A stretch of 64,000 nt of DNA from Candidatus Beckwithbacteria bacterium GW2011_GWC1_49_16 (lineage in GTDB: Bacteria; Patescibacteriota; Microgenomatia; UBA1400; CG1-02-47-37). Made by a program: the position numbers and the translations under genes. Below are positions 1 to 62,409 of this stretch, piece by piece (within the stretch, counting starts at the first letter, position 1; every line of letters starts with the position of its first letter). The stretch is taken from contig CP011210.1 in NCBI GenBank assembly GCA_001029675.1, forward strand, positions 711,528 through 775,527, read 5' to 3'. Under the pieces are notes generated by a model. It saw only the letters and a program-made list of their open reading frames with translations, had not been told where the DNA came from and ran no database searches.

Positions 1-91
1 TAAAGCTGGCGGCGCAGGAGGCCATCAAGGCTCCATAAAGTGGCAGCCAGCATGATCAGTAATGCCGAAAATCTTTTCATAGCGGCTTAGT

Positions 92-985: not shown

Positions 986-1046
986 AAACTCCAGCAGGCT
1001 GTTATATCAAAGTACACTAAATTGAAGGCCAGCTCAAGTTTTGGGT

Positions 1047-2463: not shown

Positions 2464-2478
2464 TTTAAATTATCTTAG
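2455..2478. promoter_or_regulatory. perfect 24-bp AT-rich palindrome CTAAGATAATTTAAATTATCTTAG spanning both convergent stop codons
   Basis: self-complementary; related copies at 11986..12010, 12448..12472, 56954..56976. Confidence 0.6.
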
Positions 2479-3373: not shown

Positions 3374-3377
3374 CGGT

Positions 3378-3917: not shown

Positions 3918-3923
3918 AATTTT

Positions 3924-4901: not shown

Positions 4902-4910
4902 ATGCTTATT

Positions 4911-5768: not shown

Positions 5769-5770
5769 GG

Positions 5771-6331: not shown

Positions 6332-6370
6332 ATTTTTTCACCCCCTTTTCACTTGAACATCAATTTTGTT

Positions 6371-6886
6371 CTAAGTATGTTTGTCGGCCACCTTTGAGGC
6401 TCCGTATGATTCTGGTTTGGTCTTGGCGGTAAAACCGTTGCCGGTCACCATGCCAACGACTTCCCTGATCATGTCGCGGGTCTCGCCGGCGCGGCCGACG
6501 TCGATGTGAATTTCTAGTTCGTAATGGCCGTGGCCGTTGAGGCGGCGGTTTAGGCTGGGCAGAAAAATTTGGGCGGTCTCCAAAGACAAAAGGGTTTCCA
6601 GGTAAATTTTGTCGCGTAAGGACTTGGCGGCCTCTTCTAACTTGCCTTGCCAGAAATAACGACCGCCAAAACCGACCCGGTGGACGACGATGGCGGTAAC
6701 CAATTTGAGCTTAGAAATGCCGTTTTGGCCGCGCTTGTGAGAGTCGGAACCGATAATCAGCCGGTAGGTAGCGTTGGGCTCGGCTTCGATGAAGCTGGCG
6801 ACGGCCTCGATTAAATCATTTTGTTTGAGTTTCCCTAAGGTAGGACTGACAAACATACTAAAAAAGGGTGTAGATGAAGGGGGCAA
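6371..6886 (-). CDS. DUF458/YkuK-like RNase H-fold protein
   Basis: 171 aa; N-terminal ...TYRLIIGSDSH... resembles YkuK family signature (YKLIIGTDSQ). Confidence 0.5.
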   Translation of the reverse strand: MPPSSTPFFSMFVSPTLGKLKQNDLIEAVASFIEAEPNATYRLIIGSDSHKRGQNGISKLKLVTAIVVHRVGFGGRYFWQGKLEEAAKSLRDKIYLETLLSLETAQIFLPSLNRRLNGHGHYELEIHIDVGRAGETRDMIREVVGMVTGNGFTAKTKPESYGASKVADKHT

Positions 6887-7049
6887 AGGCAGAGCCTTCT
6901 GTAAAGATAATTAAAAGTCCAAACAAAAGAAACACCACCAGCATGGGAGCCAGCCACCAGAGTTTGGCCTGCCAAAGAAAGGCAAAAAGCTCACCGATAA
7001 TCGAACCCCTCTGTTTACCTTTTTGGGCGGCGGATTTAAGTTGGTTCAT
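6858..7049 (-). CDS. DUF5989 (SxtK-like) small membrane protein
   Basis: 63 aa, single TM, C-terminal ...GSAFAPFIYTLF typical of DUF5989 proteins that follow carbamoyltransferases. Confidence 0.55.
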   Translation of the reverse strand: MNQLKSAAQKGKQRGSIIGELFAFLWQAKLWWLAPMLVVFLLFGLLIIFTEGSAFAPFIYTLF

Positions 7050-7069
7050 AGGCTCAATTATACCGCTTT

Positions 7070-35112: not shown

Positions 35113-35718
35113 TTAGCCTAGCGACTTTTGGAACAGGCCGTTGAAGTCGTGTTCGTCTTCGGAGGCAAAAACCGGGCCGACAAAAGCAAACTGGCGAAAC
35201 CCAAGCCGCTCGATTAACTGGTCGGGGTATAAAAGGTCTTGGTCCAGGCGCAAGGGGTCGGGGTTTGAAGTTTGAGAACTGTTGGGCGAGCCGGGGTAGA
35301 TTGACTCGATATAGAGGTAATCGCGAGCCAGTTTGGTAAGCTGGTCTACGGTCGCTTCGGCTTTGGGCTGGGGAAGATAACAGAGAACGTCGATGCAAGT
35401 GACTACTTCAAAGCTATGGGGCGGGTAAGGTAGGTCAGGGAGTTTGGCGTACTTGAGCCAGGCTTTGGCCGGCGAGTGGCTTAAACAATAAGCCGAGGCT
35501 TCGGTACCAAAAGCGGTAAAGCCCATGCGCCTTAAGGCTAAAGTCAAGCCGCCCATGCCGGCGCCGACATCAAGAAAACGCCACTGGGGCAAAGGGTTGA
35601 TGCGGGCCAGTAAGGCCCGGGCATTCTCCCAACCTTCTTGTCTAAAACGGGTAAGATAGTCGTCGTAGCTACCCGAGGTGTAGTAGCTTTTGTCAAAGGG
35701 GCTACTTCTCATAAACAT
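35113..35718 (-). CDS. class I SAM-dependent methyltransferase
   Basis: motif I FLDVGAGMGGLTLAL. Confidence 0.7.
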   Translation of the reverse strand: MFMRSSPFDKSYYTSGSYDDYLTRFRQEGWENARALLARINPLPQWRFLDVGAGMGGLTLALRRMGFTAFGTEASAYCLSHSPAKAWLKYAKLPDLPYPPHSFEVVTCIDVLCYLPQPKAEATVDQLTKLARDYLYIESIYPGSPNSSQTSNPDPLRLDQDLLYPDQLIERLGFRQFAFVGPVFASEDEHDFNGLFQKSLG

Positions 35719-36745
35719 ATAAAGGCACTTCGGTAAACCACTTGTGCTTCCAGCCGTAGTCGATTTCCAGGAAGTCCATCTTTTTCATGCCCAAGTTAAG
35801 CGCGTCTTCGATTTCGAGTAAATTAAAATAGTTGCCGATGCCGGGGAAACGGGCGACGTCGTAACCGCATTTGACCGGGAAGTAGCAGTTTTGGTAAAGG
35901 GCGATTAAATCGACGCCGGCAATTCTGCCGCCGATTTTGACGCTGACCATCCTGACTTGGTAGCTAACCGACTTTTTGCCCAAGGCGATGACGTGGCGAA
36001 AGGCGGCCACTCGGCGGGGGTCTTCCCAGTCGGTGTCCTCGCCTTTTTGGCGGAAACGCTCTTGGCTTAAAGCCACCAGGTGCTTAAAGTCGCCAAAGCG
36101 GTCAAAAATGATTTGGGGGTTTTGGGCTTCGATAATCCGTTTGTCGCGGCGCAAATTATAGCGGCGTTTCTTTTTTAACCGGGCCAAAAAGTCGTCGAGG
36201 CTGGTAATATCGGTTAAGTCGAGAACGTACTTGGGGTCGTCGGAGGCGAGCTCAAATAGTTGCCCCGGGGCGTTTAAAGCATCGGCGGCGATGGCATTTA
36301 AGTGAAGCGGGCTGGGAGCGGCAGCAAGAAGCAAAGGAATAAAAATGGGGTCTTTGACTAAAAGCTTGCTTTCCTCCTGCCACCAGCTGCCAAACCAAAA
36401 ATATTTTTTCTTTTCTGCCTCGTACCATAAAGGCAAAACCGCCACCGTTTGCTCGTTTGATTTGAGGGTAAGAAAATAAGGCTGGTGGTGGTAACCGCGG
36501 TAAAAAGCCAAACGAAACTCCCAGGTGTCAAATAGGGTTTTTTGAGGCGAAAATTCTTGCCATAAAGCCTGGCAAGTACCAAGGTCGGAGACGACTTCAA
36601 CGGTGAGGTTTTTAAGCGCCCGGGCGTTGCCGTTGGTGCGATAGAAGCGGCTAAACTGGGGAGAAAGTTTCAGTTGATCCAGTAAAAAAGCCCCCGATTG
36701 AGGGCGTATACCCGGAGGTTCAAGATTAGACTTAGCAGGCTCCAT
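35702..36745 (-). CDS. GNAT-fold acyltransferase of FemAB/BioF2/CelD-like family
   Basis: 347 aa; C-terminal half resembles Acetyltransf_6-type fold; assignment approximate. Confidence 0.45.
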   Translation of the reverse strand: MEPAKSNLEPPGIRPQSGAFLLDQLKLSPQFSRFYRTNGNARALKNLTVEVVSDLGTCQALWQEFSPQKTLFDTWEFRLAFYRGYHHQPYFLTLKSNEQTVAVLPLWYEAEKKKYFWFGSWWQEESKLLVKDPIFIPLLLAAAPSPLHLNAIAADALNAPGQLFELASDDPKYVLDLTDITSLDDFLARLKKKRRYNLRRDKRIIEAQNPQIIFDRFGDFKHLVALSQERFRQKGEDTDWEDPRRVAAFRHVIALGKKSVSYQVRMVSVKIGGRIAGVDLIALYQNCYFPVKCGYDVARFPGIGNYFNLLEIEDALNLGMKKMDFLEIDYGWKHKWFTEVPLYVYEK

Positions 36746-36830
36746 TTATTTTAAACGTACTCAAATAATAAATTGTTTTGAACGATTGTCAATGATTAAT
36801 TTTGATCGTGGTAAACTATAATCCTAGCAT

Positions 36831-37631
36831 ATGTTTAAAGGCAAAAAAGTGTCGGCGGTGGTGCCGGTATACAACGAGCAAAAAACGGTAGCCAGCGTCG
36901 TCTGGGCGCTGATACTCACCCGGGCTGTCGACGAAGTGGTGGTGGTCAACGACGGCTCGACTGATAAAAGTTTGACTATCCTGGATGGCTTTGGGGAGAA
37001 AATTAAGCTAATTAACCTCAAAAAAAACCGGGGGAAAGGCGGGGCGGTGGCCGAAGGGATAAAGGCTTCAACCGGGGAAATAATCGTCATGGCAGACGCG
37101 GACCTGGTGACCATGGAAGAAAAACAGATTAAAAAGCTGTTGGCGCCCTTGAGCAACCCTCAAGTCGACGGGGTGATCGGCCAGCGGTTTAAAGGCTTGT
37201 TGCCGATGACCATGGTGGCGATTGCCGGAGAAAGAGCCTATTACAAAAATGACCTTATCCTCCATCTTGAGCCAATGAAAAAAACCCGCTTTGGGCTGGA
37301 GATGTATTTAAACCAAGTTTACAAAAATAAACGCGTCGAGGTGGTGGCTTTGAAAGGACTGTGGGGCTTGTTTAAGTACCAAAAACGGGGCCAAAAGGGG
37401 TTTAAGGAGATGTGGGAAGAGTTTAAAGAGGTGGCGGCGGAACTTAAACGGCAAGGCAAGCTACCGTCGACGGATATCAAGCTGATTAAAAAAATCCGCC
37501 AAACTACCAGTTGGGAAGAAATAGAAGACAAGGTGGCAGAAATTGACAACCGCGATTTGAGAGAATTTTTGCAAAAGTATGTTTTGACCTACCTGAAAAG
37601 GGCAAGAAGGTGGCTAAATGAAGTGGTTTAA
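36831..37631 (+). CDS. family 2 glycosyltransferase
   Basis: VSAVVPVYNEQ...VVVVNDGSTDKS...DAD GT-A motifs. Confidence 0.75.
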   Translation: MFKGKKVSAVVPVYNEQKTVASVVWALILTRAVDEVVVVNDGSTDKSLTILDGFGEKIKLINLKKNRGKGGAVAEGIKASTGEIIVMADADLVTMEEKQIKKLLAPLSNPQVDGVIGQRFKGLLPMTMVAIAGERAYYKNDLILHLEPMKKTRFGLEMYLNQVYKNKRVEVVALKGLWGLFKYQKRGQKGFKEMWEEFKEVAAELKRQGKLPSTDIKLIKKIRQTTSWEEIEDKVAEIDNRDLREFLQKYVLTYLKRARRWLNEVV

Positions 37632-38280
37632 AGCCGAGGTGGCAGTTTTTTTGGCGTTGCTGTTGGCGACGGTAGGCTGGTTGTGGTACAGATTAAACTT
37701 GACCCAGGAGGAGTTGACGGCTTTAAAAAATCAAGAGCAGACGGCTGAAACGATCCAAGCGGCAGCGGCGGATATTTTTCCCGACGGCCAGATAGAGTCC
37801 TTAAACATCGAGGTGCTTGAAGTAATGCTGGCGAGCCTGTCGGCCAGACTTGAAGTTTTAGAAGCCGGCGGCGGTCAAAGCGGTCAAGGCGGTCCGGCCC
37901 CGGCCCCGGCAACCACGACCACGGTTTCATTTCAACCCCAAGTGATTTATCTGGGTGCGGCCAGCACCCAAAACCGCGACTGGACCGAAACGGGGCAGGC
38001 AGTGACCATCAACTCCGGCGACTACCCTGCTGACGTTTCGGCTACTTTTGAGGCCGGGTTGTCGATTGTCGGCGGCGAAGCCTGGGCAAGGCTTAAGAAC
38101 AAAACCACCGGAGCGGTGTTGTCGGTCACCGAAGTGATGCATAATAATAGTAGTACCACCTGGAAAACTTCCCCTGCCTTTAAACTTCATTCCGGCTACA
38201 ACAATTACGTGGTGGAATTAAAATCGTCAAGCGGCGAGACCGTCAATCTTGCCGGAGCCAGAATCAGGATTAGTCGATGA
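37618..38280 (+). CDS. membrane-anchored hypothetical protein
   Basis: 220 aa; TM + coiled region + beta-rich C-term. Confidence 0.4.
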   Translation: MKWFKAEVAVFLALLLATVGWLWYRLNLTQEELTALKNQEQTAETIQAAAADIFPDGQIESLNIEVLEVMLASLSARLEVLEAGGGQSGQGGPAPAPATTTTVSFQPQVIYLGAASTQNRDWTETGQAVTINSGDYPADVSATFEAGLSIVGGEAWARLKNKTTGAVLSVTEVMHNNSSTTWKTSPAFKLHSGYNNYVVELKSSSGETVNLAGARIRISR

Positions 38281-38630
38281 AAAACAAGTTCGGCTTAACC
38301 AAAGTCTGGAAGAAGTGGCTGACGGTAGTTTTTGTAGTGGCGGTTTATCACCTGCTGCGTGACATCTTCCAGGAGTTTTTTAAGCTAAGCTTCTGGTTTA
38401 CCGATTTTTTACACTTTGTGCCGGACAAAAACGCGCTCCCCCGGAAACTCCAGTGGCTGCTACTTGACGGCTACAGCCAGTGGTTGACCTTTCCGGTGGA
38501 GATCTTTTTAATCTGGGCCGTTCCCAAGGCGTGGAAAAAGGAATACTTCGCTACTATTGACGCGCTGGTGTTGACGACGGTAATGGTAACCGAAACCTGG
38601 TGGCTGTTGACGGTGATAAACTACAGCTAG
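38277..38630 (+). CDS. membrane hypothetical protein
   Basis: 117 aa, 3 TM, Trp-rich. Confidence 0.35.
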   Translation: MKNKFGLTKVWKKWLTVVFVVAVYHLLRDIFQEFFKLSFWFTDFLHFVPDKNALPRKLQWLLLDGYSQWLTFPVEIFLIWAVPKAWKKEYFATIDALVLTTVMVTETWWLLTVINYS

Positions 38631-38818
38631 CCCTTCGACAGACTCAGGGTTATAACCCCCTCTCGTGGTAAAATACACATGCCTTGCCGCGTGCGAGCGG
38701 AGCGAGCTTTACGCGGCCCCATCGTTCCCGGTCCGATCGCGACATTAGTGGGATCGTGACCGAGGATCCTCGACCTCGATTTCATCGAGTCGGGACTAAC
38801 GATTAAGATAATTAATTA

Positions 38819-39073
38819 ATGAATAATGTTTATATCTTACAGTCTTTAAAAAATGGTAGATATTACATTGGTTGCACAAGTGACTTAAAGTCTCGGCTGG
38901 TTAAACACAACAAAGGGCATGTTCTATCAACTAGGCCTTACAGGCCGTGGCGTCTGGTCTATCAAGAAAGGTATAATACATTATCAGCCGCAAGGAAAAG
39001 AGAGAATCAAATAAAGTCTTGGCACAAACGAGCGGCTATTGAAAAGTTAATACGCGGTCCCGATCACGGCTAA
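38819..39073 (+). CDS. GIY-YIG nuclease-domain protein
   Basis: 84 aa; VYILQS..GRYYIGCTSDLKSRLVKHN...RPWRLVY GIY-YIG signature. Confidence 0.7.
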   Translation: MNNVYILQSLKNGRYYIGCTSDLKSRLVKHNKGHVLSTRPYRPWRLVYQERYNTLSAARKRENQIKSWHKRAAIEKLIRGPDHG

Positions 39074-39091
39074 TAGCCTGATCGAAATCGG

Positions 39092-39166
39092 GGCCCCATC
39101 GTCTAACGGTTAGGACGCAAGGTTCTCAACCTTGTAATCCGGGTTCGATTCCCGGTGGGGTCACCA
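39092..39166 (+). tRNA. tRNA-Glu (anticodon CTC)
   Basis: cloverleaf folded by hand: acceptor GGCCCCA/TGGGGTC, D-stem GTCT/GGAC, anticodon stem CAAGG/CCTTG, loop TTCTCAA, T-stem CCGGG/CCCGG with TTCGATT loop, encoded CCA. Confidence 0.85.
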
Positions 39167-40661
39167 TTTTGGAAATGGCAGCAGAATTGGGGGCAGCGCT
39201 GGCTGCGCCCCCCTCCGCAGACAGCGCTGCAAAGGGATATTTTAAGTCCGGCCGGAGGTGCCGATTAAATAAAGAATAGTTCGAGCCGACAGTTTTTGCC
39301 ATGATTGCCAAATCATGGCACTCATTTTTTGCGCGCGCGATTTTTTGCGCCTGCAAGGCGCTAATTACGAATTCCCTCATAAGTTCGAGCCAAGAAGAAC
39401 CACTTTTTGAAACTCTGGCAATTTGCTCCGCAATTTTTAACTTCTCGTCAAATAGTTCGTTTTTCTTTTGTTTATAAACTTCCGGTTCCACTACTTGATC
39501 TAAATAGCCATCCAATAAACGGTTTAATTTTGTTTCAATTTCTTTTTGGTTCTCGCCAAGCCTTTGTAATTCCGTTTCAGAATTTGCCTGATCTTTTAAT
39601 TCGTCTGCCGCCATCCACTTTTCAAAATATGGCTCCCAATCTTGGTGCAAGCCGCAATCACCCACAACTTTTTTTAGTTGTTGCTCAATTTCATCTTCGG
39701 GAGCATATTTTTGCAAACAAGGTTTCAGCTTTTTAGTACAGCGATAATAGATAAAAGTTTGCGAAGTTCCATTTTTATACTTTTTAATATGTTGTTCGGC
39801 GGTGATTGCGGCGCCGCACTCGCCACAAGTGGCTAAACCGGAAAAAGCAAAATCATGGCCATGTTGTCGTGGACGTAAGATTTTTTCCACTTGCTTTTGT
39901 ACTTCCTTAAATAGTTGTTTGGAGATGAAGCATTTGTGGGAACCCTCGTAATATTCGTTAGCATATTTTAAAATCCCCACATAAAACTTGTTTGATAACA
40001 TTCGCTTTATTTGGTCAACTTTAATAGGTTTCCCACAACTTTCCCGATTCATCCCAAACCTAAAACAAAAGTTTGAAATTTCCGTAAAAGATTTATTGCC
40101 TTCGGCAAAAAGTTGAAAAGCTTTTTTAACAACTTTAGAAAGTTCGGGGTCAACATCAACGGCTCTGGTTTTAGGATTATTAATGTAACCATAAGGCGCT
40201 TTACTCGGCCACTCACCACGCCGAAGTTTTTGCCGATTGCCCCGTTTTACATTTTCCGATAAATTATCCACATAATATTTTGACTGGCCGAAGGCAATTG
40301 ATAACATAAATTTTCCTTGGGGAGTATTTTCAAACCAAAAAGACGGAAATTTCAAATCCAAAAGTTTTCCGGTATCCAGTAAATAGATTACTTTCCCGCC
40401 ATCAACTGAATTTCTAGCCAATCTGTCTGGATGCCAGGAAATTATGCCCTGCGCTTCGCCTTTCTCAATTTTCTTCAACACTAGCGCAAATTGCTCACGA
40501 CCTGGCATTTTGGCGGTTTTGGCTTCGGTAATAAATTCAGTTATTTCTAAATGGTCACGTTTGGCAAATTCTTTTAATTCTGCAATTTGCGCTTCAATAG
40601 ATAAAACTTGTTTATCTTTTTCATCAGTTGATTTTCGGCAATATGCTATGTATTTATTCAT
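39126..40661 (-). CDS. large serine recombinase (resolvase N-domain + recombinase domain + Zn ribbon)
   Basis: 511 aa; catalytic N-domain YCRKSTDEKDKQVLSIEAQ..., long C-terminal recombinase/coiled-coil region with Cys cluster (CGECGAA...C); 3' end overlaps tRNA-Glu antisense. Confidence 0.9.
   Translation of the reverse strand: MNKYIAYCRKSTDEKDKQVLSIEAQIAELKEFAKRDHLEITEFITEAKTAKMPGREQFALVLKKIEKGEAQGIISWHPDRLARNSVDGGKVIYLLDTGKLLDLKFPSFWFENTPQGKFMLSIAFGQSKYYVDNLSENVKRGNRQKLRRGEWPSKAPYGYINNPKTRAVDVDPELSKVVKKAFQLFAEGNKSFTEISNFCFRFGMNRESCGKPIKVDQIKRMLSNKFYVGILKYANEYYEGSHKCFISKQLFKEVQKQVEKILRPRQHGHDFAFSGLATCGECGAAITAEQHIKKYKNGTSQTFIYYRCTKKLKPCLQKYAPEDEIEQQLKKVVGDCGLHQDWEPYFEKWMAADELKDQANSETELQRLGENQKEIETKLNRLLDGYLDQVVEPEVYKQKKNELFDEKLKIAEQIARVSKSGSSWLELMREFVISALQAQKIARAKNECHDLAIMAKTVGSNYSLFNRHLRPDLKYPFAALSAEGGAASAAPNSAAISKMVTPPGIEPGLQG
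39161..39262. repeat. inverted repeat IR-A (~95-100 bp), left boundary of recombinase segment; begins in tRNA 3' end TCACCA
   Basis: reverse complement of 40767..40870 with 1-2 mismatches, compared by hand. Confidence 0.85.
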
Positions 40662-40766
40662 ACTTTGCTTTTGTACTCTTGTAACATATTGTAACTTGTT
40701 CTTTTAAAAAGTTCTTTAAATATCTACCTTATTAATTTTTGCGTTTTTTCTTCTGTTCTTTTTTTA

Positions 40767-40870
40767 CGGCAACTCCGACCGGACTTAAAATATCCCTTTG
40801 CAGCGCTGTCTGCGGAGGGGGGCGCAGCCAGCGCTGCCCCCAATTCTGCTGCCATTTCCAAAATGGTGAG
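40767..40870. repeat. inverted repeat IR-B, partner of IR-A
   Basis: ...ggcagcgctggctgcgcccccctccgcagacagcgctgcaaagggatattttaagtccgg... in opposite orientation. Confidence 0.85.
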
Positions 40871-40996
40871 CGTTTACGAAAAAATTCGAACCTTTTTTAA
40901 AAATTGTTAACGCATTGCGTCAGCTCCTCGCTCGCCTTCGGCTCGCTTCGTCGCTATTCGCGTTCTGCGCGGCGCCCCCACCCGCCGCGCCTCCGA
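40865..40996. repeat. inverted repeat IR-C (~131 bp), left boundary of cargo segment
   Basis: reverse complement of 48364..48495 essentially identical. Confidence 0.85.
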
Positions 40997-41316
40997 AAAC
41001 TGTCGGCTCGAATCCTAAAGAAAAAACGCAAAAATTTTAAAGAACTTTTTCAATGTCCTATAACTTAAATGGCCGTTCTGGTTGTACTCAACTCGGATTG
41101 CTCCAAATTGTCCAAAACGGCCATTAAAAAAAGCAATCCGAAAAAAGTTGAGTACAATTAAAATATACAAAGTTTCAACATCAAAAACAAGAGTCTCTTG
41201 CATTTGTTTTTTAGCGTGGTATTTGATATAAATATCATAGTACAATAAATCTAGATTTTCGATGATTAAAGTATGATATGCTTAAAGAAAATGCTGTCAA
41301 AATTGGGAGCGCCAAC

Positions 41317-41335
41317 GAGAGAGAGAGAGAGAGAG
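41317..41335 (+). repeat. (GA)9G dinucleotide tract
   Basis: gagagagagagagagagag between an upstream ATG (41273/41291, frame 2) and the in-frame signal peptide of the giant ORF (frame 0). Confidence 0.9.
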
Positions 41336-41636
41336 TAAACGGCTTCGCCGTTTTGTAACAACTTTCCTTCTAATTTTATCTTTACTTCTTCAAAATTTTT
41401 TATTCCTTATTAATCCTGTCTACGCCGCAACTAATTCTTGGGATTTTTCAACTTCGTCTAATTACACTTATGATGATACAAAAATTGAATTTTCTTCGGG
41501 TCAAGCGCAACTAAAAGCAACTTCAAATTGGTACAACACTTCATGGTCAAGGCGTAAAGCAATTACAGTTACAGGTTCTACGGCGGGTGCACAAACAAAT
41601 TATCAACTTAAACTTACAGTACCTTATGATTCGGAC

Positions 41637-44600
41637 ATGCAAGCAGATTTTGATGATATAAGGTTTACATCTTCTGATGGGACTACTTTAATTGATCACT
41701 GGCTAGAGTCGAAAACGGATTCAACTACTGCTGACTTTTGGGTAGAGATTCCATCAATTCCAGCCTCTCCAAATACCACAATGATATACATATATTACGG
41801 AAATTCCAGTGCGAGCAGTGCTTCAAATGGAGACAACACATTTCTTCTTTTTGATAATTTTGATGGGGTATCTATGGATGGCTTTTCTCGGGTAAGCCAA
41901 CAAACACTTTTTTCTGGAAGTGGAAGTGAAGATTGGTTAGGGAGAACTGTTTTTGTTGATGATGGATCGAAGTGGGTATTGGTTTATAGACAAGCTGCTA
42001 ATCATTGCTGTGATACTGCAGCAGTCATGCATATTCGGTTTTCGACAAATGAAGGTGCTTCATGGACAAATGCTGATACATTTACGAATGGCTCGGCTGT
42101 TACTGGAGCACCCTTCAGTCGACACTCAACAAATGCCGTTGCTGATCCTGTCCTTATGAAAGCACCAAACGGCGACTTGCTACTTCATGTAGGAGAGGTG
42201 AACAGCGGAGGAAATCCTATGGGTGCATACCAATATCGTAGCACTGATGGTGGCGCAACATGGACTGACGAAGGTTTAATAAACAATGACACTGAGATAT
42301 ATAGCGGCCAGGATTATACAACTGTAGATAATGATCTCTATGCTATCTTTTGGAAAGATGCAGGATCGGATGGTGCTCCTTACCAAACCTTACTTTATAA
42401 ATCAACTGACAACGGAATAACATGGGCACTAGTGAGCCCGATAACAACAAGCGGTACTGATGAAGGGGGGATTGAATACGTTGGAAGTAATACATTGCTG
42501 GTTGTTCTTAGGGACACGCCAGCAAGCAAAACTTATCAGAGAATTTCAACAGACTTAGGACAAACATGGGGTACACAAACAGATATTTCATCTTCGGTTG
42601 GAGTATTGCAGCGACCAAGAATGAGAATATTTTCTGATGAGCCTAACAGAGTGTATCTATATGGACGTGATCAATTGGCTGGAAATGACTATACGGTTCT
42701 TTACTACACTGATAATAATGGTTCAACATGGAGTTTAAAATTTTATCCAGATACAACATCATATGCGGATACCGGCTATTCAGATGTTTTAAAACAGACA
42801 GACGGTGATTTTTATATGCTTTCTTATGGAGGAACTAGTGGTACATCAAGTATTAAAGAATACATTTTCAATAAGAGCGCGACATTACAAATAGATACAA
42901 CAAAGTGGACAACTGATAATGCTACTACGTCAATTTCTAACTCCCAGTTAACATATCAAGAAACAGATACAAATATTACGTGGGGCGTCGTTAAATCAGT
43001 AAATTCAGTTTCTCGCCCATTTATTGCTGAAATTGACTATACGTTAACAAGCGGTGAATATGCACATTTTATGTACGGACCTAATCCTGATTCTGCTCAA
43101 TCTACTGCGAATGGTTATGTTTGGTGGATCGACATTAATGACCCAACAAACCCAATGCAGGACTTGACCAGAGTTGAAGACGGCACTTTTAATGACATTC
43201 AACGCAATGTTCAAGTTTCCCCGGATATTGCCAATAACGAAACTTTTAATCAAAAATTTATATTTCATAGCACTGGAGAAACGGCTTTAACAAACGGGAC
43301 ACAATATATTTCGGGAAGCGATACAACCTATTCGTCGGGAAAAATAGCATTAGGAACTGATAGTGGATCAGTTGTAAAAGTAAATACAATTAAAGTCCGC
43401 GTGTATGCAAATCCCGAACCCACAAGCTCAATAGGCTCAGAAGCTACTTTGTATGATACTTCTAACCCTACAGTACAACCAACTTCTGCAAACTCACTGA
43501 CTTTTGTATCATTATCTGCGTTTTCAGAAACAGCGACAAAAAATGGAGGACAAATTAAGTACCAGGTTTCTAATGATAGTGGCACCACTTGGTGCTGGTA
43601 CAGCTCTGGATGGACAACAACGAGTTCCGGTTATTCAGAATCCAACACTGCGAGTGATGTTAATACAAATATTTCTACGTTTCCCGTCGGAAGCGGATCG
43701 TTTTTATTCAAAGCTTATCTGAATTCTGATGGTTCTCAACTTGTTCAACTTGATGCCATAGGGGTAACTTATGTAGCCGACAATACGCCGCCATCTATTT
43801 CTTTAACGGCACTGAGTCCTGATCCAAATACTGACACCACACCTACTCTTTCCGGGACAGCCACAGACACTCAAGGGACAGTGTCTAATGTCCAGTTTCA
43901 AATGGACTCAACTTCCGGTTCGTGGACTGCTTGTACTGCAGGTGATGGAAGTTTTGATGAGACAACGGAAACTTTTACCTGTACTCCTTCGGCATTATCT
44001 GACGGAAGTCATACTATGTATGTCCGTGCAACAGATAGTAACAGCAACACGACTTCTAATGCCAATGCGTCCACCGATAGTTTTACGATTGATATTACTA
44101 CTCCCGCCTCTTTTGATTTAGATTCGCCCGGAGATAATTCGTATACTAATTCCGAAAGACCAACTTTTAAGTGGAAAGCGACAACAGATGCAACCGCCGG
44201 ACTTTCTAAATATGTTTTGGAAATAGACAATCCTTCGATCGGCTCTGGCCAACCTTCTGGTGACTTCACTATTGATAGTATTCCCACCAGTAGAACAACT
44301 GATTACGAAACAAATAAATATACCATCCATTACGAAAACTTCTCGGATTCTGATTCCACAAATAATTATATTTCTGTCTATACCAAATCACACAATGATT
44401 GGGGTTCATCTGAAAATGACGGAAAACTTAGAGAAGGAAAAGTAAGTTGGAAAGTAAAAGCAGTTGATAATGCCGGTAATGAAAGATCTTCTTCTCGAAC
44501 TATGTTTATGGACAAGACTTCCCCATCTGTAGTATTCACTCAAATAAACAGTACGCCTTACACAACTAATAATTTCTTGACCACAGATAAAACACCAACT

Positions 44601-45725
44601 ATCTTTGGAAAAATAACTGATTCATTATCCGGTGGCGATTCGTCACAAACTCAAGATGAAAACGGGCCAAAAGTTGCCAGTGCTCCTAAAGAAGTAAATA
44701 TTAAGGTGGAGAAAAAAGAAGGATTAACTTACAAGCTTGTAACATTGTACAAGATCAATATGGATAATCCATACTATACTTGCGACCTAAACAAAACTAT
44801 AGATAACTCAAAACAAAAATGCGATAAATATTTGCCTTTTGAATACACACCAAAAGAGATCTTAAATTTAGGGACTTATAAAATAACTCTTTCTGGAAAA
44901 GATAAGGCAGATAACACGTCGTCAGAAACAAGCTTTACTTTAAATATCACCACCCTAGCTCAAATCACTACACCTGAAGAAAAAGAAATTATTGAGGAAG
45001 GAATAAAAGAGTTACCCAAGGAAGAACAGGAAAAAGTAAAAGAAGAACTAGAAATCACTAAACCATCTGAAACACCACAACCAAATATTTTAGAAAAGGC
45101 TAGTCAGGGAGTTGTTAACATAAGCAAAAACATTATTCATGGAGCTGGTAACTTAATTACTACAATATTTACTGGAATTGGTAACGGAATAAGCTTTGTA
45201 TTTAATGGTGTTGGTTCAGGCCTAGCGTTTATGGGTAATACTATTGGGAACAGCTATAGTACTCTTGTTGATCATGCGCCTGGTGTTACCAAAAATATTT
45301 TGTTAGCGGTAGGAACTAATGTTAATAATGCAATCAATGAAGCAAGAAATGGAATCGCAAACCTCGCCTTTAGTATTGGCGAAAAAACAGATGATGTTTC
45401 TCATGGTGTAGGAACCGCGATTATTAAGATCGGTTATCTGTTCGTACCGGAAGCCACCAAAATATCTAACGTTACAGCAGTTGCGCTATCTCCCATGTCA
45501 GTCAGGATAACATGGGAAACAAATCATCCAGCAAACGGCAAAGTAAACTGGGGGTTTGAAGATGGAATATATGAATTTGAGGATCAAACACACAAAAGAA
45601 CCAGTAAGCATGAATTTGTTCTTGAAAATCTCAAACCCGATACTGAATATCATTATGAAGTCATGAGCCAAAACAGAAATTATGTATATGACGCTAACCG
45701 GAAATTTAAAACTCCGGCAAAATAA
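41637..45725 (+). CDS. giant secreted surface protein: DUF2341-like N-region, 5x Asp-box (BNR) sialidase-like propeller, Ig/FN3-like C-terminal domains
   Basis: 1362 aa from first in-frame ATG; open frame extends upstream to 41286 and encodes a signal peptide (FLLILSLLLQNFLFLINPVYA/AT) with no in-frame start: see (GA)n finding; Asp-boxes STNEGASW, STDGGATW, STDNGITW, STDLGQTW, TDNNGSTW. Confidence 0.8.
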   Translation: MQADFDDIRFTSSDGTTLIDHWLESKTDSTTADFWVEIPSIPASPNTTMIYIYYGNSSASSASNGDNTFLLFDNFDGVSMDGFSRVSQQTLFSGSGSEDWLGRTVFVDDGSKWVLVYRQAANHCCDTAAVMHIRFSTNEGASWTNADTFTNGSAVTGAPFSRHSTNAVADPVLMKAPNGDLLLHVGEVNSGGNPMGAYQYRSTDGGATWTDEGLINNDTEIYSGQDYTTVDNDLYAIFWKDAGSDGAPYQTLLYKSTDNGITWALVSPITTSGTDEGGIEYVGSNTLLVVLRDTPASKTYQRISTDLGQTWGTQTDISSSVGVLQRPRMRIFSDEPNRVYLYGRDQLAGNDYTVLYYTDNNGSTWSLKFYPDTTSYADTGYSDVLKQTDGDFYMLSYGGTSGTSSIKEYIFNKSATLQIDTTKWTTDNATTSISNSQLTYQETDTNITWGVVKSVNSVSRPFIAEIDYTLTSGEYAHFMYGPNPDSAQSTANGYVWWIDINDPTNPMQDLTRVEDGTFNDIQRNVQVSPDIANNETFNQKFIFHSTGETALTNGTQYISGSDTTYSSGKIALGTDSGSVVKVNTIKVRVYANPEPTSSIGSEATLYDTSNPTVQPTSANSLTFVSLSAFSETATKNGGQIKYQVSNDSGTTWCWYSSGWTTTSSGYSESNTASDVNTNISTFPVGSGSFLFKAYLNSDGSQLVQLDAIGVTYVADNTPPSISLTALSPDPNTDTTPTLSGTATDTQGTVSNVQFQMDSTSGSWTACTAGDGSFDETTETFTCTPSALSDGSHTMYVRATDSNSNTTSNANASTDSFTIDITTPASFDLDSPGDNSYTNSERPTFKWKATTDATAGLSKYVLEIDNPSIGSGQPSGDFTIDSIPTSRTTDYETNKYTIHYENFSDSDSTNNYISVYTKSHNDWGSSENDGKLREGKVSWKVKAVDNAGNERSSSRTMFMDKTSPSVVFTQINSTPYTTNNFLTTDKTPTIFGKITDSLSGGDSSQTQDENGPKVASAPKEVNIKVEKKEGLTYKLVTLYKINMDNPYYTCDLNKTIDNSKQKCDKYLPFEYTPKEILNLGTYKITLSGKDKADNTSSETSFTLNITTLAQITTPEEKEIIEEGIKELPKEEQEKVKEELEITKPSETPQPNILEKASQGVVNISKNIIHGAGNLITTIFTGIGNGISFVFNGVGSGLAFMGNTIGNSYSTLVDHAPGVTKNILLAVGTNVNNAINEARNGIANLAFSIGEKTDDVSHGVGTAIIKIGYLFVPEATKISNVTAVALSPMSVRITWETNHPANGKVNWGFEDGIYEFEDQTHKRTSKHEFVLENLKPDTEYHYEVMSQNRNYVYDANRKFKTPAK

Positions 45726-45727
45726 AT

Positions 45728-46057
45728 ATGGATAAAATTAATTTAAACAAAGATCAAAAGTTAGTTGTGGACTCTTTCTATAAAGTTAGGACCAAGAAAG
45801 GTTTAAACAGTTTTATTGAGGATTTATTTTCACCGGAAGAAACATTAGATTTAGCCCAACGACTAAAAATCGCTAAGTTAATTCTTGACGGAAAAACTTA
45901 CGAAGAAATTGCGGCAGAAATTCCTGTCAGTACCTCAACCATTTCAAAAATAGGCCAAGTAATTAAATTCGGAAAAGGTGGTTTTATTCTCTTGCAGAAT
46001 AATACAAAAGCACAAAAAGCTAAAAAGCAAAACGGAAAGGAGGTATCAAAAATATGA
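45728..46057 (+). CDS. TrpR/YerC-like HTH protein
   Basis: 109 aa; ...SPEETLDLAQRLKIAKLILDGKTYEEIAAEIPVSTSTISK... Confidence 0.5.
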   Translation: MDKINLNKDQKLVVDSFYKVRTKKGLNSFIEDLFSPEETLDLAQRLKIAKLILDGKTYEEIAAEIPVSTSTISKIGQVIKFGKGGFILLQNNTKAQKAKKQNGKEVSKI

Positions 46058-46428
46058 TTAACTTAGAATTTCAAATTTATCATTTACTAACAGGGCTTGC
46101 CGGAGGATTAGTTCGTGGATTAGTTGGAATAATGAAACAAACCCAGAAACCGGACGAGTTTAAAATTCATTGGAAATATTTTGGTTTAACCATGTTAGTT
46201 TCAGGAGTTGTTGGGGTAGTGTCAGGAATTATTGCTGATGGCGATTGGAGAATATCGTTACTTGCCGGATACGCTGGCACTGATTTTCTGGAAAGTCTTT
46301 ACAGATTAAGATTCCCTCAAATGTTCAGTATTGCTCAAACCGTTAAAACGGTAACAGAAGAAAGTAACACCGGAAAAGTAACAACACAAACAACTACGCC
46401 AGTAACAGCACCAGTAGTGACAAAATAA
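46054..46428 (+). CDS. small 2-TM membrane protein (holin-like topology)
   Basis: 124 aa; two TM helices, Thr/Val-rich tail. Confidence 0.35.
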   Translation: MINLEFQIYHLLTGLAGGLVRGLVGIMKQTQKPDEFKIHWKYFGLTMLVSGVVGVVSGIIADGDWRISLLAGYAGTDFLESLYRLRFPQMFSIAQTVKTVTEESNTGKVTTQTTTPVTAPVVTK

Positions 46429-47585: not shown

Positions 47586-48363
47586 AATGGGACAAGGAAA
47601 TCTTTTGTCTTCTTCTCTTGTTTTTCTTTTTGTTGTTGGCGGCTCCCCCGCCCCCGCCCCGTTGAGAACACAAAGCTAAAAAGGAGGGAACGCGACAGAA
47701 AACCATCGAAGGAGTACAGCCTTTCAAAGAGCGTTCCCGACTAACGCGAGCCCGCAAAGATTTACTTTGTTTTAAAAGAAACCAGCGGGCGAGCCCATCG
47801 AGAGTCATCGCGCAGGGCGCTAAAATAAAAAAGCGCGAAGCGCTTAACCTTAAGCGGGCGCGCAAGCCCTGATAAAACAGGAAGGGGTACAAATAAAGAA
47901 GGCGGGGGCGAAAAAGCGGATACCCCAGAACGCGCGAGCCTTAAAAGTCAAAACAAAAGATGAGCCCCGCTCGCAAGCGGGGCGAGGGACGCGCAGTAGG
48001 AACTCTTAGAAAAGTAAAGCCGTTGTCGCAACCCGCCCCTAGGCGGGTCAGCGCGCGATGAATGGGGTCGCCGCCAACAATTAATCGGGAGGGTGGGTTG
48101 ATACGGAATACAGAATAACCATTTAAACTTTAGTCATGTAGTCTTGTACACTTCTACAAAAGCAAAGTATCTACAGAGGGGCGGGAAACCGCCGGAAGGA
48201 ATTTTGATCTTGTTCTTCCGTTTGGCTTGGCGAGAACCAAAAAAGTGGTGGAACCGGAAGTTTTGTGCTTGGAATCGGCCAATTTCCACCATTTTGGCCG
48301 ATTCATTTGTGGTATTATAGGGAAAGCGGAAGCTTTCCAAAAATCGCGCGCGCAAAAAATGAG

Positions 48364-48495
48364 CGGAGGCGCGGCGGGTGGGGGCGCCGCGCAGAACGCG
48401 AATAGCGACGAAGCGAGCCGAAGGCGAGCGAGGAGCTGACGCAATGCGTTAACAATTTTTAAAAAAGGTTCGAATTTTTTCGTAAACGCTCACCA
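48364..48495. repeat. inverted repeat IR-C', partner of IR-C; ends in TCACCA core (attR-like)
   Basis: as above; followed by aattttgcc resembling sequence after tRNA. Confidence 0.85.
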
Positions 48496-48562
48496 AATTT
48501 TGCCACTAAAAAATCCCCTGCTTTTTTAAACCAATGGTGATTTAAGGGTATGAAGCTAAAAG

Positions 48563-48847
48563 TTATTGCTGTTGACCGAAGCCTCCGCCGTCTTGTCTGG
48601 GAGGCCGGGCGACGTCGACCCTTAAGGGCCGGCCGTCGAGATCCTGGCCGTCAAACATTTCTTTAGCTTTTTGCATTTCCTCGGGGGTTGACATGGTTAC
48701 GAAACCAAAACCCTTGGAACGCCCGGAGGCTTTGTCGGTGATGACGATAGCATCAGTGACAGTACCGGCCTGGGAAAAATGCTGCTTTAATTGATCGGTG
48801 GTAACTGTGTAGGATAAGTTGCCTACGTAAAGTTTGTTGTTGTCCAT
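48563..48847 (-). CDS. RRM-type RNA-binding protein (glycine-rich tail)
   Basis: 94 aa; RNP2 LYVGNL, RNP1 KGFGFVTM. Confidence 0.8.
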   Translation of the reverse strand: MDNNKLYVGNLSYTVTTDQLKQHFSQAGTVTDAIVITDKASGRSKGFGFVTMSTPEEMQKAKEMFDGQDLDGRPLRVDVARPPRQDGGGFGQQQ

Positions 48848-59083: not shown

Positions 59084-59714
59084 AGAAGAAATCCTCTCCC
59101 CCATCAGTGGCTTGATTAAAGTGGTAACGGTGTTCAACCGGCCGCGGCTGATGGTGGGCAACATGGTTCAGTCCGGCGGCATGGTCAAGGCGATTTGGGA
59201 CAAAGCCTTAGCCAAGCTTGACCGCGAGGGGCAAAAAGTAAACAAGGCCCTGGTGTTGGGCCTAGGCTGCGGCGACTGCGTTTTTAGCATCAATAGACAT
59301 TACCCATACGCTCGCGTCACCGGGGTGGAGCTTGATCCGGAAGTGATCAATATGGCCGAATGTTATTTTAACCTGGCGACGGCAAAGAACCTGAAGGTAG
59401 CCATTAGCGAGGGGGCTGACTATGTAGCCAAAAAGACTTCTGCCAAAGGCGGAGCGGCCGCTGACCAAAAGTTTGATCTGATTATCGTCGACGTCTATTT
59501 GGGCCAAGTGATGCCCAAAAAGTTTAAGGAGAAAAAGTTTCTGGCTAACCTGGCTAAACTTGTGGCCAAAAACGGGGTGGTGGTGATCAATCATTTGTTT
59601 TTCGGCGGCCACAAAAAGGAAGCGGAAAGATTTATTAAAGACTTAGAAAAAATCTGGCCGCAAATAACTCTACAGAGAACGGCCAGCAACCTGGTAATTT
59701 TTGCCAGAAAATAG
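59064..59714 (+). CDS. spermidine-synthase-fold methyltransferase-like protein
   Basis: LVLGLGCGDCV...VTGVELDPEVI...DLIIVDVY. Confidence 0.55.
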   Translation: MLFQKVKEEILSPISGLIKVVTVFNRPRLMVGNMVQSGGMVKAIWDKALAKLDREGQKVNKALVLGLGCGDCVFSINRHYPYARVTGVELDPEVINMAECYFNLATAKNLKVAISEGADYVAKKTSAKGGAAADQKFDLIIVDVYLGQVMPKKFKEKKFLANLAKLVAKNGVVVINHLFFGGHKKEAERFIKDLEKIWPQITLQRTASNLVIFARK

Positions 59715-62409
59715 GCTTATGGTATTTAAGTTTTTGGGTAAGTTGGTCGATACCAACCAAAGAGAAGTTAATCGGCTAACTCAAGTGGTGGGGAAGATCA
59801 ATGGCTTGGCCGACAAGGCAAAAAAGCTTGCCAAAAAAGACTTTTCCCAAAAAACGGCCGAGTTTAAGGAGCGTTTAAAAAAAGGCGAGAGCTTGGATGA
59901 GTTGCTGCCTGAAGTTTATGCCGTAACCCGGGAGGCGGCAGAGCAGGCCACAGGCTTGCGGCCGTTTGACGAGCAGCTGATGGCAGCGATTGTCTTCCAC
60001 CAAGGTAAAATTGCCGAACAAAAAACCGGCGAAGGCAAAACCTTGTCGGCGGTGGCGGCGTTGTACCTTAATGCTCTTGCCGGCCGCGGCTGTCATTTGG
60101 TGACGGTCAACGACTATTTAGCCCGGCGCGATACCGGCTGGATGGGGCCGATATACAGGCTCTTGGGGCTGTCGGTCGGAGTGGTCTATGCGGGCCGCGG
60201 CGACCAGCCGGCAGAAATATATGACCCGGAATACACCGACGAGGCGGCCACGGACGAACGCTTGCGCTACCTGAAGCCCGTGTCGCGGCAAGAGGCTTAT
60301 CGGGCGGACATTACTTACGGCACTAACAACGAGCTTGGCTTTGACTATTTGCGCGACAACATGGTAGCGGCTTTACCCCAAATGGTGCAACGGGGACACA
60401 AATTTGCCATTGTCGACGAGGTGGACTCGATTTTAGTAGACGAAGCCAGAACCCCGCTGATTATCTCGGCGCCTGATACCGAGCCGACGGACAAGTACTT
60501 TAAATTCGCCGGTTTGGTCAATGAGCTGTCGGCCGCGACCGACTATGAAAGCGACGAAAAGCACAAGACGGTTAACTTAACCGAGCACGGAATCAAAAAA
60601 GTAGAAAAGAAGCTAAATGTTGATAACCTGTACGAAAAAGACTTTGATACCATCCATCACTTAGAACAGGCTTTAAAAGCCCGGGAGCATTTCAAAAAAG
60701 ACCGCGACTACGTGATCAAGGACGGCGAGATTATTATCGTTGACGAGTTTACCGGCAGATTGATGTTTGGCCGGCGCTACTCGGAAGGGCTACACCAGGC
60801 GATCGAGGCTAAAGAGAATGTGACTATCAAACAGGAGTCAAAGACGCTGGCGACGATTTCGTTTCAGAATTATTTTAGGATGTATGACAAACTGGCCGGC
60901 ATGACCGGGACGGCGGCGACCGAGGCGGAAGAGTTTAAGAAAATCTATAACCTGGAGACGGTGGTGATCCCCACCCACGAACCGATGGTGCGATCCGACC
61001 ACCCGGACTTGGTCTACAAAACGGCCCGGGCCAAGTACGCGGCCATCGGCCGCGAGGTAGAAGAAAGACACCAAAAGGGCCAGCCGGTGTTGATCGGCAC
61101 CTCGTCGATTGACAAAAACCAGATCGTGGCCGAACTTTTGAAAAGAAAAAAAATCCCCCACCAGGTCTTAAACGCCAAAAACCACGAAAAAGAAGCCCAG
61201 ATTATCTCCCAAGCGGGCAAGGTGGGCGGAGTGACGGTGGCGACCAACCTGGCCGGCCGGGGCGTAGACATTGTTTTGGGGGGCGATAGCCGCGAGTTTG
61301 AGAGCAAAAAAATCTGGCAGAAACAGCACGACAAGGTAGTCAGTCTCGGCGGGCTTCACGTCATTGGCGTCGAGCGGCACGAATCGAGAAGAATCGATAA
61401 CCAGCTTCGGGGTCGCTCCGGCAGGCAGGGGGATCCGGGCTCATCGCGGTTTTATGTCTCATTGGAAGACGACATCATGCGCATTTTTGGCGGGGAACAA
61501 ATAAGTAAGTTAATGACCACGTTTAAGATGCCGGAAGACGTGCCCTTGGAACACGCCATGGTGAGCCGGGCCATCGAACAGGCCCAAGTCAAAGTGGAAA
61601 GCTTTCACTTTGATGCCAGAAAACATTTGGTCGAGTACGACGACGTGATGAACAAGCAAAGGGAAATTATTTATCAAAGGCGCAAGGCGATATTGACTAA
61701 TTTTGACGACGAGAAGACCCGGGGCAAATTGAAGACTAGGCTGGGTGAGATTTTGGACCAGCAGATTGAGCAGATGGTTAACCTTAGAGTCAATCCACAA
61801 ACACAAGCCATAGACTATGAAACTTTGGTAAAGGACTTGGTGATGGTGGTGCCGTTTGACCCGGCTTCGCAAAAAAGGATCACCGACCAACTGGAAAAGG
61901 CGGAGGGTCAAGAAAAAGTGGCGGAATTGGTTAAGGGCTTAGTGGAGAGGACTTACGAGCAGAGAGAGAAAGAGCTAGGTGAGGGGTTAATGCGGGAGAT
62001 AGAAAAATTTGTGCTGCTGTCTACCATTGACAAGCTGTGGATGGATCATTTGGACGCGGTGGACGATTTGCGCGAAGGCATCGGCTTGAGAGGCTACGCC
62101 CAACGCGACCCCCTGGTGGAATACAAAGGCGAAGCCTTTTCGATGTTTGAGAAGCTGGTGGCGACGATCGACTATGAGGTAGCCAGAAGGGTGTTCAGAG
62201 TCCAGGTGGGTCAGAGGCCAACTCCGCCACAGGCTGATCGGCCTATGGCCGAAACTCCGCCGCCCCCGCCGCAAGCTGACGCAAGCAGGCGGGCAGGCCC
62301 TTCACCGGCTGACGCCGGCAAACACAAACTAGGCCGGAATGATCCGTGTTGGTGTGGGTCGGGTAAAAAATGGAAAAAGTGTCACTACCCGGAGCTGCCG
62401 GCGAACTAA
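59701..62409 (+). CDS. secA: preprotein translocase ATPase SecA
   Basis: 902 aa; DEAD-like motor, C-terminal Zn finger CWCGSGKKWKKCH; start may be 59719. Confidence 0.9.
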   Translation: MPENRLMVFKFLGKLVDTNQREVNRLTQVVGKINGLADKAKKLAKKDFSQKTAEFKERLKKGESLDELLPEVYAVTREAAEQATGLRPFDEQLMAAIVFHQGKIAEQKTGEGKTLSAVAALYLNALAGRGCHLVTVNDYLARRDTGWMGPIYRLLGLSVGVVYAGRGDQPAEIYDPEYTDEAATDERLRYLKPVSRQEAYRADITYGTNNELGFDYLRDNMVAALPQMVQRGHKFAIVDEVDSILVDEARTPLIISAPDTEPTDKYFKFAGLVNELSAATDYESDEKHKTVNLTEHGIKKVEKKLNVDNLYEKDFDTIHHLEQALKAREHFKKDRDYVIKDGEIIIVDEFTGRLMFGRRYSEGLHQAIEAKENVTIKQESKTLATISFQNYFRMYDKLAGMTGTAATEAEEFKKIYNLETVVIPTHEPMVRSDHPDLVYKTARAKYAAIGREVEERHQKGQPVLIGTSSIDKNQIVAELLKRKKIPHQVLNAKNHEKEAQIISQAGKVGGVTVATNLAGRGVDIVLGGDSREFESKKIWQKQHDKVVSLGGLHVIGVERHESRRIDNQLRGRSGRQGDPGSSRFYVSLEDDIMRIFGGEQISKLMTTFKMPEDVPLEHAMVSRAIEQAQVKVESFHFDARKHLVEYDDVMNKQREIIYQRRKAILTNFDDEKTRGKLKTRLGEILDQQIEQMVNLRVNPQTQAIDYETLVKDLVMVVPFDPASQKRITDQLEKAEGQEKVAELVKGLVERTYEQREKELGEGLMREIEKFVLLSTIDKLWMDHLDAVDDLREGIGLRGYAQRDPLVEYKGEAFSMFEKLVATIDYEVARRVFRVQVGQRPTPPQADRPMAETPPPPPQADASRRAGPSPADAGKHKLGRNDPCWCGSGKKWKKCHYPELPAN

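Follow-up and report, generated by a model that had tools for sequence, protein, structure and literature searches.

A GA dinucleotide tract as a probable three-state phase-variation switch of a giant surface protein gene in Candidatus Beckwithbacteria

A giant surface protein gene in a 64,000-nt stretch of the genome of Candidatus Beckwithbacteria bacterium GW2011_GWC1_49_16 (contig CP011210.1, positions 711,528 to 775,527; hereafter the window) carries a GA dinucleotide tract between its start codons and its signal peptide. Judging from sequence comparisons, we consider it highly likely that slipped-strand mispairing in this tract operates as a three-state translational phase-variation switch. 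The gene encodes a secreted surface protein of about 1,480 aa and is built of three ATG codons followed by (GA)n, the signal peptide, and the protein body. Replication slippage would add or remove GA units, and a change by one unit would put the body in the next reading frame relative to the ATGs. Such length changes are presumably reversible at a high rate within a clone, and the protein would be made only in the ON states. The original prediction, made from the letters of the window alone, had proposed slipped-strand phase variation with the window allele in the OFF state; tract lengths at a homologous locus in Candidatus Curtissbacteria and the varied in-frame leaders of other relatives support it.

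Results

Start codons and the GA tract

The elements of the proposed switch, in window coordinates, are:

41273..41275, plus strand: ATG "alpha", start codon of frame A; at nine units it opens MICLKKMLSKLGAPT-(RE)3, followed by a stop
41278..41280, plus strand: ATG "gamma", start codon of frame B; it reads MLKENAVKIGSAN-ERERER.. and at nine units ends at the TAA at 41356
41283..41285, plus strand: TAA that shuts the giant gene's own frame on the upstream side
41291..41293, plus strand: ATG "beta", second start codon of frame A
41317..41335, plus strand: (GA)9G tract, the putative hypermutable, frame-setting repeat, with alternating Arg-Glu codons in the n-region of the signal peptide
41336..41338, plus strand: TAA that terminates frame A immediately 3' of the tract at nine units
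41337..41426, plus strand: Sec signal peptide KRLRRFVTTFLLILSLLLQNFLFLINPVYA, with predicted cleavage before ATNSW
41427..45725, plus strand: mature giant surface protein with DUF2341, a BNR/sialidase-like propeller, Big_13, and a C-terminal fn3-like domain

Read directly from the sequence, positions 41317-41335 hold the tract as G(AG)9, equivalent to (GA)9G. It is a short perfect tandem repeat in the 5' coding region whose unit is not a multiple of three, and it is the sole dinucleotide repeat of at least five units in the 64 kb. In 100 dinucleotide-preserving shuffles of the window, no match to the tract appeared even when two mismatches were permitted. Because the tract is unique in the 64 kb and absent from the shuffles, we dismiss a chance origin.

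The common frame of the ATGs at 41273 and 41291 reads MICLKKMLSKLGAPTRERERE and ends at the TAA at 41336-41338, whereas the frame of the giant open reading frame (ORF) is open from 41286 and lacks any ATG, GTG or TTG until the ATG at 41637. The gain of one GA unit or the loss of two joins the ATGs at 41273 and 41291 to the ORF, giving a protein of 1484 or 1478 aa. All of this agrees with the original prediction, which had located the tract and these two ATGs, the open upstream frame devoid of start codons, and the length changes that would fuse them to the whole protein. Its list of start codons was nevertheless incomplete, as it overlooked the third ATG at 41278 in the other frame and with it a second ON class: the loss of one unit or the gain of two joins this codon to the ORF (1481 aa). 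Expressed as k in G(AG)k, alleles of the window lineage are ON from 41273/41291 when k mod 3 = 1, ON from 41278 when k mod 3 = 2, and OFF, with no in-frame start, when k mod 3 = 0, the class to which the window (k = 9) belongs. The presence of start codons in two frames leaves a single OFF class against two ON classes, and from nine units a single-unit gain or loss would turn the gene ON.

Whatever the frame, the codons of the tract are GAG and AGA only. The tract therefore encodes Arg-Glu ahead of KRLRR, consistent with the earlier suggestion that a poly-(Arg-Glu) run falls in the n-region of the signal peptide. As (Arg-Glu)n is charge-neutral and precedes the KRLRR n-region, the signal peptide should tolerate changes in its length.

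The start-codon arrangement is shared with relatives. The motif ATGnTATG, comprising two ATGs five bases apart, is invariant in seven of seven aligned leaders, including the otherwise diverged leader of L011, and ATGs in two frames were present in all six distinct related leaders examined.

Tract lengths at a homologous locus in Curtissbacteria

The clearest evidence for switching comes from a cluster of homologous proteins in Candidatus Curtissbacteria, whose members of 913, 911, 918 and 754 aa are identical except at the N-terminus. Eight contigs from different samples (L015-L022) showed no mismatch in 250 nt upstream and 2,500 nt downstream of the tract, while the tract itself had 12, 15, 16 or 17 units:

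17 units (L015, L016): OFF, no in-frame start, called from an internal Met; 754 aa; call on 7 contigs
15 units (L017-L020): ON, frame A; 913 aa; call on 6 contigs
16 units (L021): ON, frame B; 918 aa; call on 2 contigs
12 units (L022): ON, frame A; 911 aa; call on 1 contig

The GA repeat is the only variable site across the 2,750 flanking bases, and all three predicted frame states occur naturally. For these two reasons, the Curtissbacteria locus satisfies the sequence-level definition of a contingency locus. Tract-length polymorphism at homologous loci had been proposed beforehand as a check, and it was found here together with the ON/OFF changes. The OFF allele is also annotated short in public records, at 754 aa as opposed to 913 aa, with the N-terminus cut off. 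A further Curtissbacteria allele, P0119, reads ..RERERERERERKRL.. instead of ..RERERERERESKRL..; here an AGT to AGA change at the 3' boundary of the tract lengthens the purine run.

The replication of these lengths bears on the possibility of a sequencing or assembly artefact at the dinucleotide repeat, with the true tract in frame. Repeats are prone to stutter, and some related records derive from error-prone assemblies, such as L010 with its fragmented genes. Yet three of the Curtissbacteria lengths were each replicated on several independent contigs (7, 6 and 2), the window's tract had nine units in 11 contigs from different assemblers and projects, and 19 nt lie well inside a single Illumina read. 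An artefact is therefore extremely unlikely.

Other relatives carrying the leader

We also searched for relatives independently of gene calls, using a DNA pattern of the signal peptide and a peptide-pattern scan of species-representative genomes, and obtained five further distinct lineages:

L009 / L008: 9 units, no other change, OFF
L011: 9 units, no other change, OFF
L012: 8 units, 1-nt deletion upstream, OFF
L013: 6 units, about 1 nt fewer upstream, ON
L014: 9 units, 1-nt deletion upstream, ON

A variable-gap DNA pattern around the tract gave no match in a scan of metagenome contigs, and a plain 26-nt pattern found only two metagenome contigs, both of one diverged relative. The tract count of L010 was set aside because its assembly contains many broken genes.

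The protein searches used the reconstructed ON N-terminus, the full protein and the signal peptide alone as queries against 1.84 billion representatives. About 20 proteins run from either start frame through one to five Arg-Glu pairs into SKRLRRF and the signal peptide, and their in-frame leaders imply tracts of about 4, 7, 8, 10, 11, 14 and 16 units. Homologous loci thus span 6-17 units at the DNA level and about 4-16 as inferred from proteins. Counting a start frame as used where it is in register with the body and was called as a gene, we find frame A in use in L017-L020, L022, P0001, P0020 and P0021, and frame B in L021/P0117, P0002, P0009, P0019, P0023 and P0127. Of these, P0001 and P0002 have no contig on record and appear to be read-level translations, P0002 ending in adapter-derived residues. 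Both states are accordingly found in nature: OFF in the window, L009, L011, L012 and L015/L016, and ON in L013, L014, L017-L022 and many proteins.

Three DUF2341 surface proteins with other signal peptides, P0048, P0003 and P0032, also carry Arg-Glu repeats at their very N-terminus (for example MRNPERERERVKRFSLKK.. and MSTNRERESKSS..). Within this family of proteins, 5' GA tracts may extend beyond the one leader studied here.

An intact signal peptide behind a closed frame

Immediately 3' of the tract, at 41337-41441, the frame of the giant ORF encodes KRLRRFVTTFLLILSLLLQNFLFLINPVYA|ATNSW, which bears out the claim of a textbook Sec signal peptide in the upstream extension. The extension is kept as protein in relatives, a point that had been set as a check. 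Over the 30 codons of the signal peptide, all pairs of seven lineages sum to 166 synonymous and 86 nonsynonymous codon differences; between the window and L013 the numbers are 12 and 1. This pattern indicates that purifying selection is acting on the signal peptide. The ORF is open for 1,462 codons past the tract, and the window also contains a SecA gene (59701-62409). Given the synonymous excess and the open ORF, OFF lineages keep a translatable, selected signal peptide and gene body.

We considered whether expression could start at a non-canonical codon in the ORF frame, which the original prediction had named as a finding that would speak against it. In L009 and L011, this frame is open for no more than 18 nt ahead of the signal peptide, an interval made up solely of GAG, AGA and AGT codons. 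Because so little of the frame is open, no hidden start in the ORF frame explains expression, and we rejected this candidate.

The public record AKM79550.1 (Candidatus Beckwithbacteria) is the exact 1362-aa product begun at the internal ATG 41637, and the longest contig with this exact product is 1.05 Mb. Because the annotation begins at the internal Met, the signal peptide and about 100 mature N-terminal residues are missing from databases. The record is annotated as "Serine-rich adhesin, platelet-type".

Nine units in the window's own lineage

Contigs of the window's lineage were retrieved through the exact 1362-aa product, and all seven had nine units. As this look-up is skewed to OFF alleles, it was repeated through the neighbouring 109-aa gene, where 23 of 23 contigs carried the 1362-aa (OFF-type) call and all seven loci displayed had nine units. 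In total, nine units were present in 11 of 11 distinct contigs.

This constancy weighs against switching at the window's own locus. Tract-length variation was not found among the 11 distinct contigs of the lineage, and the exact ON versions (10 units with either frame-A ATG, 8 units with the frame-B ATG) were not in the protein collection. Many of the assemblies stem from one aquifer, so their populations are not independent. Nine units also recur in three other lineages (L009, L011 and L014), which suggests that the tract may be less mutable at nine units than at 12-17. Finally, an apparent ON relative, P0019, comes from a protein-level assembly and could therefore be chimeric. P0019 shares more than 99% identity with the mature protein of the window, and its leader MSKDNATKTGGVN-ERERERERE-S corresponds to 14 units, ON in frame B.

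Nine units with an OFF-type call in every assembly, no exact ON version in the collection, and the lower slippage to be expected of nine units than of 12-17 would together suit a stable null allele, in which the tract is a fixed recent frameshift of the Beckwithbacteria lineage without useful reversion. We regard this as unlikely. The ORF is intact beyond the tract and identical across assemblies, the signal peptide is intact and conserved, and either neighbouring length class would restore expression; moreover, the homologous Curtissbacteria locus switches, and the near-identical P0019 is ON at 14 units. Switching of the kind originally predicted is shown for the family, whereas the window's own lineage had exactly nine units in every assembly checked.

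Three assemblies that are otherwise 100% identical (L001, L005 and L007) lack blocks of about 35-123 nt at several sites of the island that surrounds the giant gene, at window positions 39306-39428, 39975-40047, 40968-41071, 45989-46107, 47950-48066 and 48463-48581. In L001, one missing block merges the 109-aa helix-turn-helix (HTH) gene into a 193-aa call. The missing blocks could be strain indels or collapsed or trimmed regions of older assemblies.

A hairpin after the tract and the possibility of recoding

One further feature adjoins the tract:

41337..41353, plus strand: possible hairpin AAACGGC-TTC-GCCGTTT, overlapping the KRLRRF codons

The 7-bp hairpin begins one base 3' of the tract and appears in the centroid fold. 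Compared with shuffled sequence, its region folds no better (z = -1.0). The stem is invariant in relatives and only the loop varies (T or C), so there is no covariation. We rejected the hairpin as an intrinsic terminator, since the terminator scan gave no terminator-like site, and likewise rejected selection on its structure via Arg codons, because CGG, CGC and CGT are not rare enough in the giant gene.

Such a hairpin could assist recoding, in which the nine-unit OFF allele would still be expressed by a one-unit slip of RNA polymerase or a ribosomal -2 (equivalent to +1) shift. The position of the hairpin would suit this explanation, and three diverged lineages (window, L009 and L011) have in common an out-of-frame tract of nine units that runs straight into TAA. 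On (GA)n, a slip of 2 nt would, in addition, retain full pairing, with both tRNAs re-pairing. Tract length (4-17 units) and frame relation vary among relatives, however, and many are in frame at the DNA level; because the frame relation is not conserved, a programmed recoding site is disfavoured. Neither the folding score, nor the missing covariation, nor the stem Arg codons, which are not unusual for the giant gene, lend it support, and nothing requires it. Overall, we judge recoding very improbable as an alternative to DNA-level switching, with which it could coexist.

The island and its inverted repeats

The GC content around the giant gene is 35-43%, as opposed to about 50% for the genome. 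The surrounding features are:

39092..39166, plus strand: tRNA-Glu(CTC), left edge of the low-GC island
39126..40661, minus strand: large serine recombinase carrying the domains Resolvase, Recombinase and Zn_ribbon_recom; its gene diverges from the giant gene
40864..40995, no strand: left arm of a perfect 132-nt inverted repeat, arms 100% complementary
41195..41262, plus strand: conserved block with a putative promoter (TTGTTT at 41204-41209, 17-nt spacer, TGaTATAAA at 41224-41232)
45728..46428, plus strand: two small genes directly downstream of the giant gene, for a 109-aa Trp-repressor-like HTH protein and a 124-aa protein
48364..48495, no strand: right arm of the perfect 132-nt inverted repeat, arms 100% complementary

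The conserved block upstream of the start codons is kept in six of seven related loci. The promoter within it is a candidate read by eye that scores under the threshold of a consensus scan. On the minus strand, a strong promoter-like match (TTGACA, 16-nt spacer, TATCAT; 41300-41273; 11 of 12 positions) overlaps the ATG cluster and is directed at a 76-aa ORF and the recombinase gene. It may be incidental, because the conserved ATGATA yields this -10 element when its reverse complement is read.

Downstream, the giant gene and the first small gene are separated by a 3-nt gap, and the two small genes overlap each other. They are probably co-transcribed with the giant gene, and the OFF state may also reduce their expression through polarity.

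Between the 132-nt arms lie 7,368 nt that hold, besides the giant gene and the two small ones, a gene for an M23 peptidase. Inverted repeats flanking the segment and an adjoining recombinase gene are what would be expected of an invertible segment. L006 (= L028; a 263-kb contig, JGI 3300009285) joins the 7.4-kb segment to the right-hand flank in the opposite orientation. Because this contig ends inside the second repeat arm, its orientation may represent an assembly path through the repeat, and many contigs break at the 132-nt repeats. The evidence for inversion of the segment is suggestive but not conclusive: of the mobile or invertible element originally described, the perfect inverted repeats stand, while the other orientation was seen in one assembly only.

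The recombinase gene is bracketed by a second pair of inverted repeats (39161-39263 and 40767-40869; 103 nt, 98% complementary), the left arm of which begins in the last bases of the tRNA-Glu and reaches into the 3' end of the recombinase ORF. Segment 39280-39562 recurs as shorter inverted copies at 40996-41012 and 48224-48363, and the repeat region looks reshuffled.

A leader joined to unrelated proteins

With about 85-90% DNA identity, the leader stands before three or more mature N-termini that are unrelated to one another (ATNSWDFSTSS.., ASSPWTQTDW.. and ATGKVYFQ..). It adjoins homologous recombinases in differing settings, namely tRNA-Glu in the window and rpoC-rpsL-rpsG in L009, and the recombinase stays adjacent to the leader in L009, L011 and L013. 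In L009 (contig Ga0075660_102, positions 1-7600), the recombinase-plus-leader unit follows directly after rpoC, rpsL and rpsG. The mature N-terminus of L009 differs (ASSPWTQTDWVGGSGQTSW..) and is of the DUF2341/LamG type, according to the Pfam records of relatives that share it; similarity to the window at the DNA level ends right after the signal peptide and weakly resumes about 2.6 kb into the gene.

Another contig, L030 (ENA ERZ27254847 k141_225015), corresponds to window positions 35280-41382 and shares the chromosomal flank, the repeat region, and an identical 511-aa recombinase. From about 41233 onwards its leader is another variant, with (GA)10G in frame (ON) and a different signal-peptide core, followed by an unrelated mature protein (..VYA|ATGKVYFQYSTAVH..). 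A protein search with this cargo gave no homologue beyond the shared leader. L030 could represent a cargo exchange behind a shared leader or a chimeric contig.

We tentatively suggest that the leader, comprising the promoter block, three ATGs in two frames, (GA)n, and the KRLRRF signal peptide, might be a portable, recombinase-linked module that was moved among lineages of the candidate phyla radiation (CPR) and joined to unrelated giant bodies, although we rate the chance of this as somewhat below even.

Discussion

CPR bacteria are uncultured organisms of ultra-small size that are probably attached to other cells in life. Some of their giant surface proteins may mediate this attachment, and the giant protein family described here is a concrete candidate for experiment. 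By analogy with pathogens, a naturally switched surface gene suggests fluctuating selection, possible sources of which are host attachment, recognition by phages or predators, and the cost of expression. The likely benefit would be the variable exposure of an adhesin or phage-receptor-like surface protein on an episymbiotic cell. If the portable module and the inverted-repeat segment are both real, variation would take place at two levels, cargo exchange or inversion on the one hand and on/off switching by repeat length on the other, resembling the expression sites of antigenic variation.

Contingency loci have been described mostly in host-adapted pathogens, and the present finding extends them to groundwater episymbionts. 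Counts of GA units in individual reads allow switching to be traced in metagenome time series that already exist. Annotation is affected in practice as well: the public gene model (1362 aa, start at 41637) and OFF-state homologues lose the real N-terminus, which hides the signal peptide.

That a switch of this kind would be undescribed for such organisms had been expected. In the literature on CPR, Patescibacteria, Saccharibacteria or Beckwithbacteria, our searches turned up no prior account of phase variation or slipped-strand repeats, with incomplete coverage that does not prove absence. The only repeat-linked hypervariation that these searches gave for a CPR surface protein is the hypervariable PTD repeat of a Gracilibacteria (BD1-5) surface protein, which has an in-frame 9-nt unit and synonymous variation (PMC6851277). 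That repeat does not switch frames, and no on/off switch was proposed for it (PMC6851277), whereas the window's tract shifts the frame. Repeat-mediated phase variation is a textbook mechanism; what is without an earlier description that we could find is its occurrence in CPR bacteria.

Among the known systems, the opa genes encode adhesins whose signal-peptide coding part likewise contains a repeat; slippage switches the frame, and the members of the gene family share a 5' module. They differ in their pentanucleotide repeat, in encoding small beta-barrels, and in forming a multi-copy family per genome, as opposed to the one copy seen in the 64 kb of the window. The oipA and sabA genes of Helicobacter pylori have, as far as known, a single start frame, and their CT repeat lies in the hydrophobic part of the signal peptide. 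In the window's tract, by contrast, the Arg-Glu codons fall in the n-region and come before the positive charges, and both phylum and protein family differ. The likeness is that these hop-family genes, too, are switched by dinucleotide repeats in signal-peptide coding regions, the number of CT repeats setting ON or OFF by slipped-strand mispairing (PMC4225565; PMC5371856).

A close parallel is licA (lic1A) of Haemophilus influenzae, in which two of three ATGs share a frame, the remaining one uses a second frame, the third frame has none, and a (CAAT)n repeat precedes the gene body (PMC2212159). As in the window, the repeat lies between the start codons and the body, the frame is set by slipped-strand mispairing, and two of three length classes are ON (PMC2212159). 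The window has ATGs in two frames, and its third frame contains the TAA at 41283 and no start. The classic contingency-locus architecture of the Neisseria/Haemophilus type that had been claimed for the window therefore matches the licA layout point for point. The two systems differ in the repeat, which is a tetranucleotide in licA and a dinucleotide in the window; in the product, a cytoplasmic choline kinase as opposed to a secreted giant protein; and in the organism, a host-adapted proteobacterium as opposed to a groundwater CPR bacterium. Because there is no sequence homology, the resemblance of the window's locus to licA and to the H. pylori genes lies in how the switch works.

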